Below, piece after piece: positions 7,187 through 15,538 of a DNA stretch of 64,000 bases (position 1 is the stretch's first letter; the number at the start of each line of letters is the position of its first letter). Source of the DNA: an uncultured Desulfobacter sp. (GTDB lineage Bacteria > Desulfobacterota > Desulfobacteria > Desulfobacterales > Desulfobacteraceae); assembly GCA_963665095.1 (NCBI GenBank), contig OY762069.1:4576001-4640000 (forward strand), read 5' to 3'. Under the pieces are notes generated by a model. It searched no databases, was not told where the DNA came from, and saw nothing but the letters and a program-made list of their open reading frames with translations. A program made the position numbers and the translations under genes.

Positions 7187-7822
7187 TCTGCACCCCTTTA
7201 AAGATATTTTTGATTGGACACTGCCTCAAAACACTTTCTGGCCATAATTTTAGAGCGTTAATACCAAGAGTTCAAAAGAGGCCTGTGCTTGCGATATCGT
7301 CTAATATACCGGCAAAACTCTTTTTGTCATGTCTACGACGGTATGAACTGGTTATGGTAGATCAGCTGCAGCTTTTCGCCTGTGCATATGGGCAGCCTTG
7401 TAGACATGCGCCCCTTTTGAAAGCTGTCCAAACACGGATTTTCGCTCAGGCATCATATAAGATCCCAGCGACATCTCCGGACTGAATCAGAATTTTTTAA
7501 TGTATTATTTATATATCAGGTATATACGCATACAAGCGGGTTTGTCAATCCCGTTCCGCCATCAAGGCCTTATAAGCCGGCTGATTTAGCAGCCCCCCAT
7601 ACGCTGTGTCAGGCGATGCAGCGTATATCGTCAAATTAAAAATACCGAACGATTTATCTGCCATATCCGGCTCAAATATATGCTTGAGCCGGAGGCATGG
7701 TCACCCTTGCCATTGCAGTGCCCCTTATCTGATCGTCTGTGATTGCATTAGTACCATGGCAACCCGGCAGCCGCAAGATGATATCTGCCCGCCCTGTTGG
7801 AGAAGGCCGGCCGTTATAAATA

Positions 7823-7835
7823 GGTGACCCCATGA
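7823..7835 (+). repeat. Left copy of 13-bp direct repeat GGTGACCCCATGA
   Basis: Identical to 11768-11780; both copies are preceded by CCGGCC and followed by (A)CCATG. Confidence 0.75.
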
Positions 7836-8004
7836 CCATGACCCTGATGCTGGCAAGCTTTAATAATTAATTATGTATCGTGTCCCCAGAATTAATATTA
7901 TATTGTCAATTATTCGTATTTTTTTATATTTACTGATATGATATTATCATTAATAACAATAATGATTGCCTGGGAACACATTGAAAACATCCTTCAATAT
8001 AAAA

Positions 8005-8292
8005 ATGCCTGTTGAAACCAGCCGGGAACTGGCCTTAAAAACCAGGCGCCTCCGGCTTGAAAAGAGATGGACCCGGCGCACTCTGTCTAAAAGATCCGGG
8101 GTACCGGAATCAACCTTACGGCGCTTTGAGGACACAGGTAAAATTTCCCTGGAAAGCTTTTTAAAATTGATGAACGCACTGGGCCGACTCCACGAAACAA
8201 ATGATTTATTAACACCGGAACCGGCTGTCTCAATGGAGGATTTAAAAAGACAGGCCCAAAAGAATCATCTGCCCCAAAGGGGATCTGTATGA
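8005..8292 (+). CDS. HipB-like XRE-family HTH antitoxin (start uncertain, 7966-8005)
   Basis: WTRRTLSKRSGVPESTLRRFEDTGKISLESF HTH; ATGA overlap with hipA. Confidence 0.85.
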   Translation: MPVETSRELALKTRRLRLEKRWTRRTLSKRSGVPESTLRRFEDTGKISLESFLKLMNALGRLHETNDLLTPEPAVSMEDLKRQAQKNHLPQRGSV

Positions 8293-9521
8293 AATTTTTA
8301 AATGTTTTCCTCAAACTGTCTCCTTCTCAAAAGATCCTCGTGGGAACCCTGGCCGAAGACAGGCAAAAAATTCGATTCCAATATGACTCGCAGTTTTTAA
8401 AAAATCCTGTGTGGCTCTCTCCGTACAAACTGCCGCCTCAACCTGGGATGTTTGAACATAAAGACAGGGAATTCGGGCCGATTTTCGGTCTGTTTGACAA
8501 TTCTTTGCCTGACGGCTGGGGCCTGTTATTAATGGATAGGTATTTGAGGAAAAAAGGTATTGATGTCGATACCCTCACCGTACTTGACAGATTATCGTTT
8601 TTGGGGGCATCAACTATGGGCGCACTGATTTATGAGCCATCCTCCGGGGAGGATTGTTTTAACCGCCTGATCGATCTTCAGGAGATGTACAGGCACTCAG
8701 TCAAAATCATAGAAAGTGACAGTACTGACATCATCCCCGTACTCATGAAAATGGGTGGCAGCCCCCAGGGTGCAAGGCCCAAAATCCAGGTGGGAGTTAA
8801 AGATGGCAAGCTGATGACCGGTGCTGATGATTTACCGGAAGGCTATGAACACTGGCTGATCAAATTTCCATCTCCAAAGGATTTCAAGGATGCAGGGAAA
8901 GTTGAAAAAGCCTATGCATTAATGGCGGAAGACGCCGGGATCATGATGCCGACAACCCGTTTATTTGAGGTTGAATCCGGTGATTCTTTTTTCGGCATAA
9001 AGCGTTTTGACCGCAATGGCAACCAGCGGTTCCATGTTCACTCGTTGGGGGGATTAATCCACTCCAACTTCAGAATACCTGGATGCGATTACCAGATATT
9101 TTTAAGGGTCATCTCCGATCTAACCCAAAAACAGGAAGATGTGGAAAGGGGATTCCGGCAGATGGTCTTCAACATAATGGGCAATAACCGCGACGACCAT
9201 GTGAAAAATTTTTCCTTTTTAATTGATGCCGATGGAGAGTGGACCCTGTCGCCGGCCTACGACCTGATCTACTCCCCAGGTCCGGGCGGCGAACACTCCA
9301 TGAGCGTTTCAGGAGAAGGCCGGTCACCAGGATTGGACCAGGTCAAAGCACTGGGACTTGAAATTGGCCTTAAGCCCCAAAAAATTCAGGATATTATCGA
9401 TCAATCCGCCGAAGCGGTACGTTACTGGGAGAGTTATGCTGATGAGTTAAATATCTCACAGGAAAGCATGAATAGCATTCGGATAAAGATTAATGAAAAC
9501 TTAAAACGGTTTCAGCTCTGA
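8289..9521 (+). CDS. hipA: HipA-family Ser/Thr kinase toxin
   Basis: SLPDGWG, GSPQGARPK, WLIKF, KRFDR, NRDDHVKNFSF and LSPAYDL motifs are all intact. Confidence 0.93.
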   Translation: MKFLNVFLKLSPSQKILVGTLAEDRQKIRFQYDSQFLKNPVWLSPYKLPPQPGMFEHKDREFGPIFGLFDNSLPDGWGLLLMDRYLRKKGIDVDTLTVLDRLSFLGASTMGALIYEPSSGEDCFNRLIDLQEMYRHSVKIIESDSTDIIPVLMKMGGSPQGARPKIQVGVKDGKLMTGADDLPEGYEHWLIKFPSPKDFKDAGKVEKAYALMAEDAGIMMPTTRLFEVESGDSFFGIKRFDRNGNQRFHVHSLGGLIHSNFRIPGCDYQIFLRVISDLTQKQEDVERGFRQMVFNIMGNNRDDHVKNFSFLIDADGEWTLSPAYDLIYSPGPGGEHSMSVSGEGRSPGLDQVKALGLEIGLKPQKIQDIIDQSAEAVRYWESYADELNISQESMNSIRIKINENLKRFQL

Positions 9522-9541
9522 TGGATTTAACATAACAACCT

Positions 9542-9937
9542 TTAATAAAATGCCAAGTTAATCACTCTGGCCATACTTAAAAAATCCCTGTCATTGTGCA
9601 GCAGCAACAAGTCCTGTTCCATGGCGATCTGGGCGATCAGGCAGTCAATGGTACTTCTGATTGTGATACCGCTTTTTCTGCAGGCAAAATAGATCCCGGC
9701 AGCCTGGGCATAAGAAGAGACTGCATCCAGAGGCTGATAAAATCTTTGGCATCCCAGATACGTCTCCAGAAGCTCATATTCTTTCTTGTTCCTGGCTCCT
9801 TGCAGGATTTCCTGGTAAATAACGGATGTAATGCCAAACGGGATATCCCGTTCAATGATTTCTTTCAAACGATCCGCAGGCGAATTTGACATCCCTTTAA
9901 AGAAATCAACCAGGACAGAGGTGTCAACAAGTATCAT
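9542..9937 (-). CDS. vapC: VapC PIN-domain ribonuclease toxin
   Basis: ILVDTSV, QEILQG, STIDCLIA and LLHNDRDF motifs; ATGA overlap with vapB at 9934-9937. Confidence 0.92.
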   Translation of the reverse strand: MILVDTSVLVDFFKGMSNSPADRLKEIIERDIPFGITSVIYQEILQGARNKKEYELLETYLGCQRFYQPLDAVSSYAQAAGIYFACRKSGITIRSTIDCLIAQIAMEQDLLLLHNDRDFLSMARVINLAFY

Positions 9938-10134
9938 TGTCCCTGCCGACACGCCTTGTAATCATAATCATCCTGGAATTTTATTTTCCCGGAAAGCTCA
10001 AGAAGATTCCGTCTTTTCCTGGTCTGAACGAACTCCTGCAGCGCCATGGAAATTATCTCCTTTTTAGTCCTCAAGCCGCTTAAGGCCATAGCCTCCTGCA
10101 TAAGCATATCGTCAAGTATAACGTTTGTTCTCAT
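9934..10134 (-). CDS. vapB: VapB-type antitoxin
   Basis: MRTNVILDDMLMQEAM...TKKEII RHH-like N-terminus, AGGAGGT RBS, directly upstream of the PIN gene. Confidence 0.88.
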   Translation of the reverse strand: MRTNVILDDMLMQEAMALSGLRTKKEIISMALQEFVQTRKRRNLLELSGKIKFQDDYDYKACRQGQ

Positions 10135-10157
10135 TTATACACCTCCTTATACACACA

Positions 10158-10186
10158 ACCATACACATTCGTGTTGATCTTGTCAA
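10158..10186 (-). promoter_or_regulatory. Sigma-70 promoter of vapBC
   Basis: TTGACA-N17-TATGGT on the minus strand; GTGTAT repeats overlap the -10/leader (possible operator). Confidence 0.65.
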
Positions 10187-10220
10187 TTCGAGAATGGGAC
10201 TTTTAGCGACCACAAACAAA

Positions 10221-10376
10221 TCATCATCAAGCCGTTGTGACTTGGACAAGGGGAGGACAATTCCAACGGTTCGGCGGGCCGCCAGGGTCGCCAGGCTATT
10301 AGGACAATCAGAAAAAATATGGGTTCCATTGGCTGGTGAGGATTCTTTCGTTGATGCGGGCTTTTCCGCAGCATAA
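10221..10376 (+). pseudogene. Relic of an XRE/HigA-like HTH antitoxin (C-terminal half)
   Basis: SSRCDLDKGRTIPTVRRAARVARLLGQSEKIWVPLAGEDSFVDAGF resembles the CDIEKGR..P...A.++AR.LG.SE..WV.LA pattern of XRE proteins; no N-terminal half or start. Confidence 0.5.
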
Positions 10377-10719
10377 CGCCCTTTTAAAACCAAAGTCACC
10401 AGCAACAGCTGGATTCCATCGGCAAAAGCGGTAAGGTTTCTCAGCCCTATTTTAAAATAAGGTTTAATTCTGACAGTGGCGGCCGCCTTTGTAGGAAGAA
10501 CGATATTATTGGCGCTTGAACCTTTATTTGAATTTGTTCGGGTTTAAAATGGATGGGTGCTACAAGAAAGGTGGGTGGTTGAATTTTCAGCATATATTGG
10601 GGATAAGGCAAAGAGGGCTTAAACTCAGTATTTTTACCCTCAAAACAGGCGGCTAAGACAATATACAGACGTGAAATAAAAACAATTATTTATAATTACA
10701 GATAGATAGCTTGGTCTGA

Positions 10720-10791
10720 CCCTACCCAGACACATTGATTCGCCTGGGAGAACAGATAATTGGGTTGGCCGAATATTTACGCTCCACCTGA
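10720..10791 (+). pseudogene. Possible decayed PEP-CTERM sorting-tail fragment
   Basis: PYPDTLIRLGEQIIGLAEYLRST* aligns without gaps to PEPGTMFLLGLGLIGFAGIGRRR of 12078-12974 and is followed by a terminator. Confidence 0.4.
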
Positions 10792-10798
10792 AAGTAAA

Positions 10799-10838
10799 AC
10801 GGGTTCTGCATACTTTCGTGTGCAGAACCCGTACTTTT
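10799..10838 (+). terminator. Strong hairpin terminator with no intact gene upstream
   Basis: ACGGGTTCTGCATAC-TTTC-GTGTGCAGAACCCGT-ACTTTT. Confidence 0.65.
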
Positions 10839-10877
10839 ATAAGGGTAAAAAAGATGTGTTTAATTATAATTACAGCA

Positions 10878-11346
10878 AACATTCTGCCGGAAGGCTGCAT
10901 TTATCCTCGGGAAGAAAGAGCTGTCCGGGATATTTTACGCCGAAGACTTTTGTTTGTGCAGCAAAGAACAACTCAAATTTTGAGTTTACAAAGCATGATA
11001 ACAAGGCAACTTGGCATAAAAATGTCAGGCAATGCGATCAAAAAATTGAAGGAACCTGAGGTTCATCAAATGTTCGATTCAAATCAGGGGTTCATGGCAG
11101 CACTTCAGATCAGGACCATCAAGGACCTGAGTAATTCCATCAAAGAGATTGAACGACAGGCGCTTTCCCAGGTGAAAATGAAAAAAGCCTTTGAAATACT
11201 TAAAACAATACCGGGTGTCGGCAATATTCTGGCACTGACTATCATGCTTGAGGTTGGCGAGATCAAACGGTTTGCCAAGGTAGGATGCTATTCTTCCTAT
11301 TGCCGTTGTGATCCCCTTTGATGAGGTAGGGCTTTTTTGCCGGTAA
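10878..11346 (+). pseudogene. IS110-family transposase pseudogene
   Basis: ILPEGCIYPREERAVRDILRRR...LKTIPGVGNILALTIMLEVGEIKRFAKVGCYSSYCRC, then a frame jump at ~11310 into the C-terminal IPFDEVGLFCR*. The DEDD RuvC domain and the catalytic-Ser segment are missing. Confidence 0.85.
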
Positions 11347-11351
11347 ATTAA

Positions 11352-11640
11352 GGCTGCAGCAGCGAACCATTTCAGGGGTTGGTATGAACCATTAGGTTTG
11401 ATTGGCAACTGCTGCAGCCACACAGTTTTTATATCCTGATTCGCCTGTGCCGTGAGCCTGTACGGGATTGGTTAACAACCATAAGATTTGAAAACAAACA
11501 ATTAGCCACGGTACGGCACTGAAGATTTTCTGGGGTCTGAACGGACCAGGGGCCGTGTACCACGCATTTTGCCTGGTACACATCTGGCTTGAACCTGATG
11601 GGTGACTGGTGCGGATCATTTCCGTGAACCACACGACGAA
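11352..11640 (+). ncRNA. Candidate IS110/IS1111 bridge (seek) RNA with three related stem-loop modules
   Basis: Three GA(A/G)CC-N9-10-(T/C)TGGT-loop-ACCA modules at 11364, 11454 and 11591; closing stems GGCTGCAGCAG/CTGCTGCAGCC and GTGCCGT/ACGGCAC; module 3 contains ATGGGTGAC, identical to the element end at 11765-11773. Confidence 0.6.
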
Positions 11641-11767
11641 ATAACAGGCGCGGACAGGGAAAAAAGCTGTTGGTTTAAAACCAATTTACAAAATAGTGTG
11701 TGGGTCAAGAAAAAAAGGAGATTTTTTCTTAGGGGAGGTGTTTTTTCTCTTGACCCGGCCTTTAATG

Positions 11768-11780
11768 GGTGACCCCATGA
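11768..11780 (+). repeat. Right copy of 13-bp direct repeat GGTGACCCCATGA, at the IS110 right junction
   Basis: Identical to 7823-7835. Confidence 0.75.
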
Positions 11781-11814
11781 ACCATGAAAGATGTTGGAAC
11801 TCCGATAATATGAT

Positions 11815-11830
11815 TGTGAAAATTTTTACA
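11815..11830. promoter_or_regulatory. TGT-N10-ACA enhancer-like box upstream of the PEP-CTERM gene
   Basis: TGTGAAAATTTTTACA, ~170 bp upstream of a -24/-12 promoter. Confidence 0.5.
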
Positions 11831-12000
11831 CAACTAATAAAAAATTTCCCAATAATTGGAGACTTGTTGTAATGTTTTGTAAAGGTACAGCAAACTGCAA
11901 AATATGATGGCCAAGGACATTGCATCTATAACACACTTAAAATACAAAATATTTTTCATATATTGTATTTTTAACTATTTACGCTGCAGCTTTTATTTCT

Positions 12001-12017
12001 TTGGCCTCCTTTTTGCA
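12001..12017 (+). promoter_or_regulatory. Sigma-54 promoter of the PEP-CTERM gene
   Basis: TTGGCCTCCTTTTTGCA, GG-N10-GC. Confidence 0.7.
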
Positions 12018-12077
12018 TATGTATACATGCAGGCAAAGGGCCTATTTTAAAAGATCTAAATTATCTAAAGAAGGAGA

Positions 12078-12974
12078 ATGATTATGAAATTCTTAAAATT
12101 GTTATTAGTATTAGCGTTTTTATTATTTTCAACAAGTTCAGCTTATGCCGAAAGCTTCGGTGTCAATTTAGACAATGATGCCGATTTGGAAATCTGGACA
12201 AATGGGGATGACAAGTTAATGGAGGGAGGAACCGGTGCCGTTATTTTAACCTCTTCTGATACTTTTTATGAAGTGGCTGTTGGAACTATTAGTGCTTTTT
12301 TGGATAATAATGTTTTTCCTAACAATCAGAGTTCCGATGCATATGCTAACAATGTACTTACGTATGTTCTTGAAGGAACAGGAAACGTAGACATAACGGC
12401 TAGTGAGCATTCTTTTGATTTTACCGATGCAACCATTTCTTTTTATCTTACCCCCACCAGCACCGCCACAGATTCCTACCTCTTGGCAGAGTCGTTAGCT
12501 ACTGGCGACGCAATTGCTACCTTCAGCCTGACGAGCGGTTCCGGGACGCTTCAAACAACACCGGGAGAGACCGATGGCCTTGATATCTTTGCCTTGGACA
12601 ATGCAGATATAGACAATGATGTTTTTTTCTTCATCAATTCAGATGGTACTCTGTCAGATTGGGCTGATCTGAATATCGTCACTAGTCTTTTTATAGAAAT
12701 CTGGATCGATACAAAAAATATGCTTATCACTAATGAAGACGATCAAGATTCATTAGATGAGACTCAAGCTGTTTTTACGGAGTTGTTCACAGCTGTTGCT
12801 ACCGGAGCCCTTGACGGTGCGACTCCCGATTCTACTGTAGACGACAACATGTTTATCGTACGTACTCAAGGTGGAGGAGTGAGTGCCTCAATAGTCCCTG
12901 AGCCGGGAACAATGTTCCTCCTCGGTTTGGGTCTTATCGGTTTTGCGGGCATAGGAAGAAGAAGGGTTAACTAA
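12078..12974 (+). CDS. PEP-CTERM sorting-domain surface protein
   Basis: Signal peptide (SSAYA), acidic Asp/Thr/Ser-rich body and a VPEPGTMFLLGLGLIGFAGIGRRRVN tail. Confidence 0.95.
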   Translation: MIMKFLKLLLVLAFLLFSTSSAYAESFGVNLDNDADLEIWTNGDDKLMEGGTGAVILTSSDTFYEVAVGTISAFLDNNVFPNNQSSDAYANNVLTYVLEGTGNVDITASEHSFDFTDATISFYLTPTSTATDSYLLAESLATGDAIATFSLTSGSGTLQTTPGETDGLDIFALDNADIDNDVFFFINSDGTLSDWADLNIVTSLFIEIWIDTKNMLITNEDDQDSLDETQAVFTELFTAVATGALDGATPDSTVDDNMFIVRTQGGGVSASIVPEPGTMFLLGLGLIGFAGIGRRRVN

Positions 12975-13013
12975 AAACGACTTCTTAATTACTATCCTCC
13001 CATAAAAATTAAC

Positions 13014-13048
13014 AAAAGCCGGCGGGTTAAAAACCCGCCGGCTTTTTT
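13014..13048 (+). terminator. Intrinsic terminator
   Basis: AAAAGCCGGCGGGTT-AAA-AACCCGCCGGCTTTTTT. Confidence 0.9.
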
Positions 13049-13543
13049 GTTTTAGATTAAAATCTTAGAGTCCATACCGGCCAATGGCTTTTAGATAGAC
13101 GGGCTTTGTCCCGTAACCGGGAGGCCTCATGATCATGAAGCCCCATAGTTATAAGGAAAGCCCCGTTAGTTCTAACTGGTTTCTGTCCTGTCTTCTCCTC
13201 ATATCGGTTGCAAGTTACGACCATTACGCTACCTCATTAAGCCTAACTTTACTGATACAATATCCTCGATTGAGCCCAACAAAAATTCAGACCAGTTGAC
13301 TTTTCATTATCCAGTATCCACCTATGAACCCTCACGGCACTATCCCCTTCAGGAAACCGATTGTCTTTGCGACACTGTATTGCAGGAGGGCTTTTAAGAA
13401 CAAAGACATTTCTGTCTGCATAGTTCTCGGAACATCTCGCCAACCTCTCTTGGGAATTTTACATATAGTTTCTTTTGTCTGCATTTTGGTACAAACTACC
13501 ACAGAATCTTTTCAATCCGATCTTAAGAGAGTTTAAGGCCAGA

Positions 13544-15538
13544 CTAAAACCGCCATATAATATCAAAATAAACAAAATCATAGTTCCCAAACCGCCCCAA
13601 CCAGGTATCGGTGTCTCCGAAAAAAAAACCTGCCCCGGCCCGGCATTCCAGATTAGTGACATATGTATATTTCAGATACGGATTATAATAGGCTCCGTTG
13701 TTGTTCAGGTTTCTGGTAAACTCGAAGCAGGCTTTCAGCCAGTCTGAAATTATATCTACACTTAATTTTCCCATTATGGAATAGGTATCCTGCTCAAAGA
13801 ACAGCACGGAAGAGTCGTGGTCGGAGATATGCTTGTGGCCGAACTGAAGGTTCAGGTAGGTGTTACCGGCTGTGGTGTAATCTGCGCCAATGATATAAAA
13901 CAGAGATGGCAACCGTTTGGAGGTCAGGCTGTCTGTCAGAAAAGACTCTTTTTCCCGCCATGCCGCCTCACCACGTACCCCCAGTCCGGAAAGGGTGGTT
14001 TCAAATTCAAAGCCGAAAATATTGGTTCGCTTGTATTCAATCTCGATATCTTCGTTTGTGAAATCCGCCGGGGAAACGCTGCTCAGGGCGACAGACAGCG
14101 AATCAACGGAGAATCCGTCTGTCAGCTTAAGATTTTTAATGGGAAAACTGGATATATACGGCAGGTCTTCATTGGCCCGGTGATAGGTCAGCCCCAAATC
14201 CACAGACGCTATGGTGGCAGCGATCCTTGCGCCCCATTCCTTTTCGTTGGAAGGCTGAGTCTCATGGATGGCCATATTGTTAAAATAGCTTTTCAGGTAA
14301 TCCGGTACACTGGCGTTGGAAATCTCTTTTTTGATATGGCCGAACATGGACCAGTTGGTCTTGTAATAGTCCATGTTCGCTTTTTCAAAAAACGGAATAA
14401 AAACACCTTCCACGCTGAAGTTATCTGTACGAAGGGTGAGGTCTGCCATCCACACCGGCATTTTACGCTCCTCGTAATCAGGGATGACAAATTCTCTTAA
14501 ATCCTCCGGGTTCAGGGTGTCCACAGGGCTCATCTGGTCTGTCTTTCCCCAGCGGATGATCTGTTTACCCAGGGAAAGATCGGCATGGTCCCCGTGGACC
14601 ATCCATTTGGCTTCATAGATCTCCGCATCATAATCATCTGTCCGGTCTTCCTGGCCAAAATAAATATAGTCCGATCTTACTGATAAAAGAATGACATCTT
14701 TATAGGCACCTTCTACTGTTACCTTGTTCCTGAAAGAGGTTCTGTTTTCCACCCCGTCCCGATCCCTGATGGTTAATATGGGCCGGATCTGAATCTTTCC
14801 GCCAACAGAAAAATTTGAGGGTTCTTCATCCTGCTGCGTATCTGCAAAAATATCGTCCGGCATCCCTGTATCCAGCAGCGCTCCCTGGGGCATTGTATCC
14901 TGACTGGCTGAATCCTTATCTTCTGTGTTCTGAAGATCGTTGTCCAGCACCTCAGCTACTTGTACATTCTCACTCTGATCATCAACAGTTCCGGGTTGCG
15001 GGATTTCCTCAGCGGGCGGTGTTGACTGCGATACCCCCCCTTGTTGTTCAGGTGCGTTCGCTTCTAATTCCTTTTTAGAGAGGTTTTCTTGATTTTCCGG
15101 AATAACAGTCTTGGGAGAGCCGGATACAGAGATTTCAATTCCAAAGGCAGGAGAGCCGGACCGGGCAATGGAATAGGAGTAGTTGGAGCCTTCTTGAATT
15201 ACCAGAACCACACGGACTTTTTGTGTTGTATTTTGCCCGGCCCTTATCAAATTGATCAAAGCCCCGTTCGTCTGCCGTTCAAAACGCACTTCCGGAATCA
15301 CGCAATCGTCAATGTCCACGACGATTCTCTCGGGCTGATGGAGGACAAAATGAGAATAGTGAAAGGCTCTGCTAAGCTCAATATTAATCGTTTCGCCGGA
15401 GGCGGTTTCCTGACTTTCAACTTGAACAATCCGGCTCGCAGCCTGAGCTTTTCCAGCAGAGCAGAAAAACAGGCAAACAAAAACGCAAAAGAACAAATTT
15501 AAAGCTGTCCATACGAAATTTACAATAATTGATCGCAT
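13544..15538 (-). CDS. Exported protein: AMIN domain, acidic linker and outer-membrane beta-barrel (DUF1302-like)
   Basis: Signal peptide, PERIVVDI...IRAGQ...VRVVL AMIN motif, LGKQIIRWGKTD..SPVD.LNP motif and a terminal Phe (IIWRF). Confidence 0.75.
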   Translation of the reverse strand: MRSIIVNFVWTALNLFFCVFVCLFFCSAGKAQAASRIVQVESQETASGETINIELSRAFHYSHFVLHQPERIVVDIDDCVIPEVRFERQTNGALINLIRAGQNTTQKVRVVLVIQEGSNYSYSIARSGSPAFGIEISVSGSPKTVIPENQENLSKKELEANAPEQQGGVSQSTPPAEEIPQPGTVDDQSENVQVAEVLDNDLQNTEDKDSASQDTMPQGALLDTGMPDDIFADTQQDEEPSNFSVGGKIQIRPILTIRDRDGVENRTSFRNKVTVEGAYKDVILLSVRSDYIYFGQEDRTDDYDAEIYEAKWMVHGDHADLSLGKQIIRWGKTDQMSPVDTLNPEDLREFVIPDYEERKMPVWMADLTLRTDNFSVEGVFIPFFEKANMDYYKTNWSMFGHIKKEISNASVPDYLKSYFNNMAIHETQPSNEKEWGARIAATIASVDLGLTYHRANEDLPYISSFPIKNLKLTDGFSVDSLSVALSSVSPADFTNEDIEIEYKRTNIFGFEFETTLSGLGVRGEAAWREKESFLTDSLTSKRLPSLFYIIGADYTTAGNTYLNLQFGHKHISDHDSSVLFFEQDTYSIMGKLSVDIISDWLKACFEFTRNLNNNGAYYNPYLKYTYVTNLECRAGAGFFFGDTDTWLGRFGNYDFVYFDIIWRF

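Follow-up and report, generated by a model that had tools for sequence, protein, structure and literature searches.

Insertion sequences (IS) of the IS1111 group are known to settle in the sites of other mobile elements, e.g., IS4321/IS5075 in the terminal repeats of Tn21, the IS1111-attC group, and ISPa11 in repetitive extragenic palindromic (REP) sequences (passages of PMC11187229), and are marked by subterminal inverted repeats and a long non-coding end downstream of the transposase gene (parts of PMC11208160 and PMC11187229). Canonical excision pairs a left junction, made of left target and right donor (LT-RD), with a right junction, made of left donor and right target (LD-RT), according to sections of PMC13626964. 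For the IS110 family, half-matched sites have been reported to work, and expanded loci with LD-only boundaries and partial circles have been described (portions of 10.64898/2026.08.14.744561), while ISPpu9 forms modular circles (part of 10.1101/2025.01.17.633520). Repeats with the consensus GGGGWSAS are described for TIRYT genes (passages of PMC3733652 and PMC6006769). Here, we analyze a ~3.9-kb segment that lies between two copies of the 13-bp direct repeat GGTGACCCCATGA in a 64,000-nucleotide stretch of an uncultured Desulfobacter sp. genome (contig OY762069.1, positions 4,576,001 to 4,640,000; hereafter, the window) and carries two toxin-antitoxin (TA) pairs and a relic of an IS1111-type element. 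We favor, with moderate confidence, the view that the segment is a decayed TA cluster that was built up stepwise at TIRYT-type repeat ends that IS1111 also targets.

The right repeat copy and the decayed IS1111-type element

The features on which the comparison rests are, in window coordinates:

7807-7841, + strand: left repeat copy (13-mer at 7823-7835), with weak likeness to an IS end, a GA core, CCCC and stuttered ATGACC units
7869-7893, + strand: TIRYT-type repeat end, with GTGTCCCC, the reverse of GGGGWSAS, at 7880-7887, about 75 bp before hipB
10877-11338, + strand: IS1111-type transposase relic, amino acids 107-250 of 338, followed by a 230-bp deletion at 11310, 98% to the intact elements of this genome
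11339-11770, + strand: right non-coding end of the IS, a predicted bridge/seek RNA (alignment, fold and covariation)
11768-11787, + strand: right repeat copy, where the IS ends, followed by core GA (11771-11772), CCCC as target half and a stuttered flank, 41 bp longer in two strains

The two copies of the 13-mer, at 7823-7835 and 11768-11780, lie on the same strand, as the initial annotation of this DNA had noted, and their flanks are alike as well: of the 1050 non-IS TGACCCC sites, none resembles the right junction as closely as the left site with its flanks (score 26, with the runner-up at 16). The genome-wide count proposed there as a check returned exactly these two copies in the single-contig genome of 6,906,358 bp; near-matches occur at 11 sites with at most one mismatch and at 164 with at most two. 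Within the window, the two matches at one mismatch or fewer compare with a shuffle mean of 0.20, two being reached in 1 of 100 shuffles. A bare 13-mer repeat nonetheless means little, because direct repeats of this length at 1-5 kb spacing are common, with 1486 such pairs genome-wide or about 2 per 10 kb.

Comparison with related elements in the same genome shows that a decayed IS1111-type element ends at the right copy, which is its right junction and consists of IS end, core GA and target half CCCC. The relic is devoid of the IS left end and of amino acids 1-106 and has the internal 230-bp deletion, but is otherwise 96-98% identical to two intact elements of the genome (97% at the protein level over amino acids 107-250). 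One of these intact copies (G000:C1:3682870-3684492, G000 being this genome) splits an 884-codon reading frame, and core-to-core removal of 1622 bp restores the frame of 70 + 814 codons. The restored frame fixes the junction, and the 13-mer at the right copy is thus composed of the terminal bases of the IS, GA as core, CCCC, and then four bases of flank. The repeat pair is hence not a duplicated target; a target-site duplication is rejected because the 13-mer includes IS bases and only the core remains after removal of the IS at another copy. No difference separates the two intact copies over 1635 bp (100% identity), so the element has moved recently.

Several features of the intact element place the ancestor of the relic in the IS1111 group. 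The 338-amino-acid transposase is of the IS110 family, matching NF033542 (DEDD transposase) above the cut-off; close to the ends of the element lie subterminal inverted repeats, of the kind of about 11-13 bp typical of the group, TAAAGGCCAGG on the left pairing with CCGGCCTTTA on the right with one mismatch; the long non-coding end downstream of the tnp gene contains target-matching segments, the complement of the top strand coming first; and insertion occurs at a specific target with no duplication beyond the core, based on the restored frame and the comparison of flanks. In the window, the guides of the predicted RNA are at 11375-11378 and 11394-11401 (target) and 11598-11605 (donor), with a subterminal inverted repeat at 11755-11766. 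Another relic of this genome (G000:C1:3402390-3402485) has its RNA end cut at the internal donor-guide sequence and abuts a repeat flank directly, the break being a deletion between two copies of ATGGGTGA.

Target choice of the IS1111 clade

To describe the sites at which this clade lands, 49 distinct right ends were collected (30 loci from 44 matches of one search, plus 16 earlier loci). Past the core, the first to fourth bases are C in 48, 46, 42 and 35 of the 48 ends counted (i.e., other than tandem). In the predicted RNA, GGGG faces AGGUUUGA in a stem-loop that contains both target guides (fold z -2.2; 6 of 200 shuffles equally good), and the left-target guide tracks the left flank in six genomes (G000, G004, G040, G342, G375 and G408), its variable segment being AGGTTTGA in G000 and G004, AAGCCTGA in G342 and G375, AGGCCTGA in G408 and TGGCCTGA in G040. 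In G342 and G375, the IS is located within an arm of a GGGGTCAG…CTGACCCC palindrome, and a relic IS left end of the Desulfobacter genome likewise lies within the arm of a GGGGTCAG palindrome. These alignments indicate that the clade lands at the GA|CCCC ends of TIRYT-type repeats, and the landing sites fit the GGGGWSAS repeats of TIRYT genes. Of the annotation's three alternatives, a repeated target motif is therefore the best fit, because the common TGACCCC, present in both copies, is the landing motif of the clade. Our literature search, for which access was partial, found no paper on IS1111 targeting of TIRYT-type repeats and nothing relevant on the TGACCCC motif or on RAYT repeats with cassettes. 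This natural series of IS1111 elements, with one fixed target half (CCCC) and a variable, covarying other half, is suited as a test set for bridge-RNA target rules.

Eighteen of the 49 right ends were without the usual upstream IS sequence according to a script; by eye, these comprised 13 short stand-alone footprints, two doubled last-19-bp ends and three longer remnants. The footprints, of about 19 bp (L150, L151, L155, L157, L158, L163, L164, L166, L168, L174, L178, L041 and L052; one more, in this genome, is at G000:C1:6303841-6303871), begin at an internal GA-CC site, and the last 19 bp are doubled in L159 and L176. Such footprints suggest frequent non-canonical excision by the clade, of which they would be natural products. 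This genome also has a RAYT-like Y1 gene between inverted repeats (G000:C1:4097720-4098600), whose repeats recur at about 25 other sites as palindromes with variable spacers and stuttered flanks, many of them as solo copies.

The left copy and a proposed assembly of the TA cluster

The annotation had tied the repeat to the IS110 junction, which is borne out for the right copy, whereas the left copy is without an IS body. Neither nhmmer with the RNA-end alignment nor blastn found a second RNA end or IS body there, which rules out a second IS body at the left. Scored as an IS end, the left copy reaches 6 bits vs. 34 for true ends and ranks 9th of 2624, with four unrelated sites higher. An older IS110 junction at this position, also among the earlier alternatives, is accordingly possible in the form of a short, worn IS-end footprint, but not with the RNA end and rank expected of a true end. 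On the reverse strand, GGGGWSAS (consensus as given in passages of PMC3733652) is present as GGGGTCAC at 7824-7831 and as GGGGACAC at 7880-7887; the 7880 motif recurs in the relatives G014, G013, G020 and G002 and at other sites of this genome, while the arm at 7823 does not. A scrap of the local RAYT gene, with which the left context has 13 bp in common, was also considered and set aside (no tblastn match and no upstream likeness).

Nor is the left copy the edge of the accessory region, because relic DNA continues leftward of it. The contents expected between the repeats (HipBA, VapBC, an XRE relic and an IS110-family relic with its RNA end) were confirmed by domain and alignment searches. 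The remaining features are:

7367-7459, strand not assigned: decayed copy of a repeated non-coding element, four other blastn matches in the genome at 72-79%
7602-7740, - strand: relic of an Rpn/YhgA-like gene with a frameshift, matching a 340-amino-acid open reading frame of L007 in tblastn (E 3e-08)
7966-8292, + strand: intact HipB-like XRE antitoxin, Pfam HTH_3 above the cut-off, NCBIfam HipB match weak and below the cut-off
8289-9521, + strand: HipA-family kinase toxin with intact frame, Pfam HipA_C 3.7e-48 and Couple_hipA
9542-9952, - strand: VapC PIN toxin with intact frame, NCBIfam NF047959 above the cut-off and Pfam PIN
9934-10134, - strand: intact VapB antitoxin, Pfam VapB_antitoxin 1e-16
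10221-10367, + strand: XRE antitoxin-like relic, C-terminal half only, 78% to amino acids 45-93 of an L004 protein
12078-12974, + strand: PEP-CTERM gene (Pfam PEP-CTERM), right of the segment

The Rpn/YhgA-like relic is 77-85% identical at the DNA level to genes in four relatives, the family name of the L007 reading frame being inferred from its sequence, and the XRE relic shows 74% DNA identity to G000 6190218. The element at 7367-7459 has matches in several relatives and several longer copies in this genome and in relatives. No relative of 10340-10900 was found in 150 genomes except for one weak 42-bp match. The stretch 10340-10876 is low in GC, and a direct repeat of 16 bp, at 10686 and 10860, lies just ahead of the IS break. 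An Rfam scan gave no match within the segment near the gathering score.

Related strains were compared using contigs of 4 of 18 runs, three of which were informative (X6, X8 and X10; X13 was too thin). All three represent ~99% identical strains with the segment in place, and they differ within it about as often as in its flanks. Differences in X6 amount to 19/2947 inside the segment vs. 18/2254 and 21/2224 outside, and X8 has 137 extra bases at 10841. In X6 and X8, 30 extra letters and a second TGACCCCATGA follow 11780, so that the match to the left copy there is 19 bp long. X10 shows low coverage and a loose end at ~10600-11100, and its PEP-CTERM region from ~11779 to 13559 is replaced by other DNA, the neighboring DUF1302 gene being ~10% divergent; the replacement piece likely adjoins the segment in X10, on a path that crosses the repeated IS end. 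Two further X10 joints (7689>9696 and 9732>10220, with sides of 30-33 letters) were set aside as unreliable. The one-copy empty site that the annotation had suggested looking for was not among the joints listed for X6, X8 and X10, nor was a circle, in contigs that drop rare forms; the segment stays in place and the breakpoints lie elsewhere.

The window locus is absent from 40 other genomes, and what follows the DUF1302 gene varies in the six relatives examined (of seven). None of 82 HipA loci was accompanied by VapC, VapB or the transposase of this IS, and none of 80 VapC loci by HipA, HipB or that transposase, co-occurrence evidence that is modest because most HipA and VapC relatives are distant (35-70%). 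The closest HipBA found (L063, HipA 68%, with an identical, 100%, locus in G375) is flanked by 30-bp direct repeats ending in TGACCCC, into one of which a member of the same IS clade, present as a right-end relic, has inserted, and the relic junction has 15 bp in common with the next repeat, the pattern seen in the window. At this site in G351, G360 and G375, a different cassette follows each repeat, i.e., a TacA/GNAT pair, HipBA, a YhgA-like gene, or a Y1 gene with a Phd/ParE pair. These cassettes (L284, L285 and L274, respectively) are located behind a gene whose sequence suggests a sulfate adenylyltransferase-like product, differ in order and content, and each directly follows a ~30-bp direct repeat ending in TGACCC(C); the arrangement resembles integron-like shuffling. 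Elsewhere, a metagenome contig (L204:4884-5760) has three direct repeats ending in AAGCCTGACCCC among HicAB, BrnT, ParE and VapBC, and a TA cluster of this genome (G000:C1:3227000-3228700, L182; a PIN pair and RelB/YafQ) lies beside GGGGACAG-type repeats.

The sequence of events that we favor is as follows. The gap between the chemoreceptor and PEP-CTERM genes would be a hotspot marked by short TIRYT-type repeat ends (…GACCCC / …GTCCCC), in which TA pairs and other small mobile genes accumulated and then partly decayed. As the alignments above show, an IS1111 element, with a predicted guide RNA reading the left flank, GA and CCCC, inserted at one repeat end, giving rise to the right copy, and this IS copy afterwards lost its left half. 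The left copy would be an older sister repeat end that has its stuttered flank in common with the right copy through local duplication, perhaps with a worn IS-end footprint ahead of it, and the intact HipBA and VapBC probably aid the persistence of the stretch, as the behavior of type II TA systems leads us to infer. The locus itself is ordinary, a decayed IS junction beside two TA pairs, with parts of known kinds.

Several observations weigh against such a stepwise origin. The ancestral empty allele was not found in the strains, so the order of events can only be inferred. Further, the likeness of the left copy to the right junction extends to both sides of the core, upstream (top 0.2-0.6%) as well as downstream (19 bp identical in X6 and X8), and such two-sided likeness points to one duplication rather than to independent events. 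The upstream arm of the left copy fits no repeat family of this genome and occurs at three mismatches in 1 of 300 other genomes, the same as a control; on this count, and because metagenome contigs gave no exact match, the end of another IS was rejected as the left context. Finally, TGACCCC/TGTCCCC are not enriched near VapC relatives (1.15/1.74 per 10 kb vs. 1.53/1.32 in controls).

It is tempting to extend the stepwise scenario to a general model, which we offer tentatively, in which, within this bacterial family, direct TIRYT-type repeat ends are the joints of an integron-like array that acquires and rearranges TA cassettes and is parasitized by the RNA-guided IS1111 clade, with the window as a decayed example. 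As an equally tentative part of this model, IS1111 would retune its target guide to each repeat family and leave 19-bp footprints. If TIRYT-type repeats do shuffle TA cassettes, this would provide a function for the Y1 enzymes.

Alternatively, the locus might be a fossil of an expanded IS1111 locus, in which the recombinase captured or duplicated DNA through half-matched donor sites, with the TA genes as cargo and the two LD-core-RT sites as segment boundaries. The left site does agree with 7 of the 8 bases of the donor guide and carries CCCC as target half, the intact identical IS copies could supply the enzyme in trans, and the short right-end footprints would mean that the clade recombines at non-canonical sites; in addition, LD-only boundaries are reported by Hu et al. 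at expanded IS110 loci (portions of 10.64898/2026.08.14.744561), and in vitro the donor loop is able to bring about excision by itself (sections of PMC13626964). However, both window sites are of the right-junction type (LD-core-RT) with no left end remaining, as opposed to the LT-RD plus LD-RT of canonical excision, no empty site or circle was among the joints listed in the three informative runs, and the TA pairs were never found with the transposase in the relatives examined. We thus consider this origin unlikely, though the half-matched sites, LD-only boundaries and modular ISPpu9 circles reported lend some probability to a past IS-driven capture; if true, it would add another member to the described expanded IS110 loci. 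No IS left end, and no LT-RD left junction, was found in the 3.9-kb segment, and canonical excision is not set up because both sites are LD-RT and the left junction is missing. The segment was also found as a unit at no other genomic site among the 40 relatives and the HipA and VapC loci above, and our literature search found no paper on non-autonomous, TA-bearing IS110 cargo. We conclude that the 3.9 kb are probably not now a unit moved by IS1111; the cargo unit moved by a recombinase that the annotation had envisaged thus finds no positive support, and is further disfavored by a segment that stays in place in three strains with other breakpoints.

Less likely still is a single arrival of all the TA genes, in which a cassette flanked by duplicated TIRYT-type repeat ends was brought in by a Y1 (HUH) transposase or through recombination of the repeats, and IS1111 invaded the right repeat later. 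The repeat-delimited TA cassettes shuffled at one site in G351, G360 and G375, including the closest HipBA relative, and the RAYT-like Y1 gene between such repeats in this genome provide a precedent for such a cassette, but the repeat that precedes HipBA in the window (GTGTCCCC at 7880) is of another type than the 13-mer, HipBA and VapBC were not found travelling together, and beyond the stutter the two copies show weak homology (18 of 1048 control sites and 579 of 5000 shuffles were equally good). The least probable explanation is that the left copy resembles the IS junction by chance. In its favor, 13-mer repeats are frequent at such spacing, four unrelated sites outscore the left copy as IS ends, and the flank TGACCCCATGACC is also present at an unrelated repeat end (L211). 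Against it, none of the 1050 non-IS sites matches the junction better than the left copy, which lies just 3.9 kb away on the same strand, with 19 bp identical in two strains and a second repeat end 45 bp away.

Comparison with known systems

The locus resembles the expanded IS110 loci in its LD-only boundaries, partial elements and cargo beside an IS110 module (as portions of 10.64898/2026.08.14.744561 describe them). However, those loci and ISPpu9 are defined by empty sites and circles, none of which was seen among the joints listed for the three strains, and no IS left boundary is present. The TIRtrons/TIRYT (passages of PMC3733652; subclass 2.1 in PMC6006769) share the GGGGWSAS consensus and a repeat-flanked Y1 gene with many solo or paired copies, and those passages make no mention of IS110/IS1111 targeting or TA cassettes; unlike the repeat families of TIRYT genes, the left 13-mer is in no multi-copy family of this genome. 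Further parallels are the IS1111 elements that target other elements' sites, with which the clade in the window has in common an IS110-family transposase, subterminal inverted repeats, a long non-coding end 3' of the gene, guides matching both target strands and a preference for repeat ends. In contrast to these elements, its target is the GA|CCCC end of GGGGWSAS-type repeats, and it often leaves behind short right-end footprints or a doubled last 19 bp.

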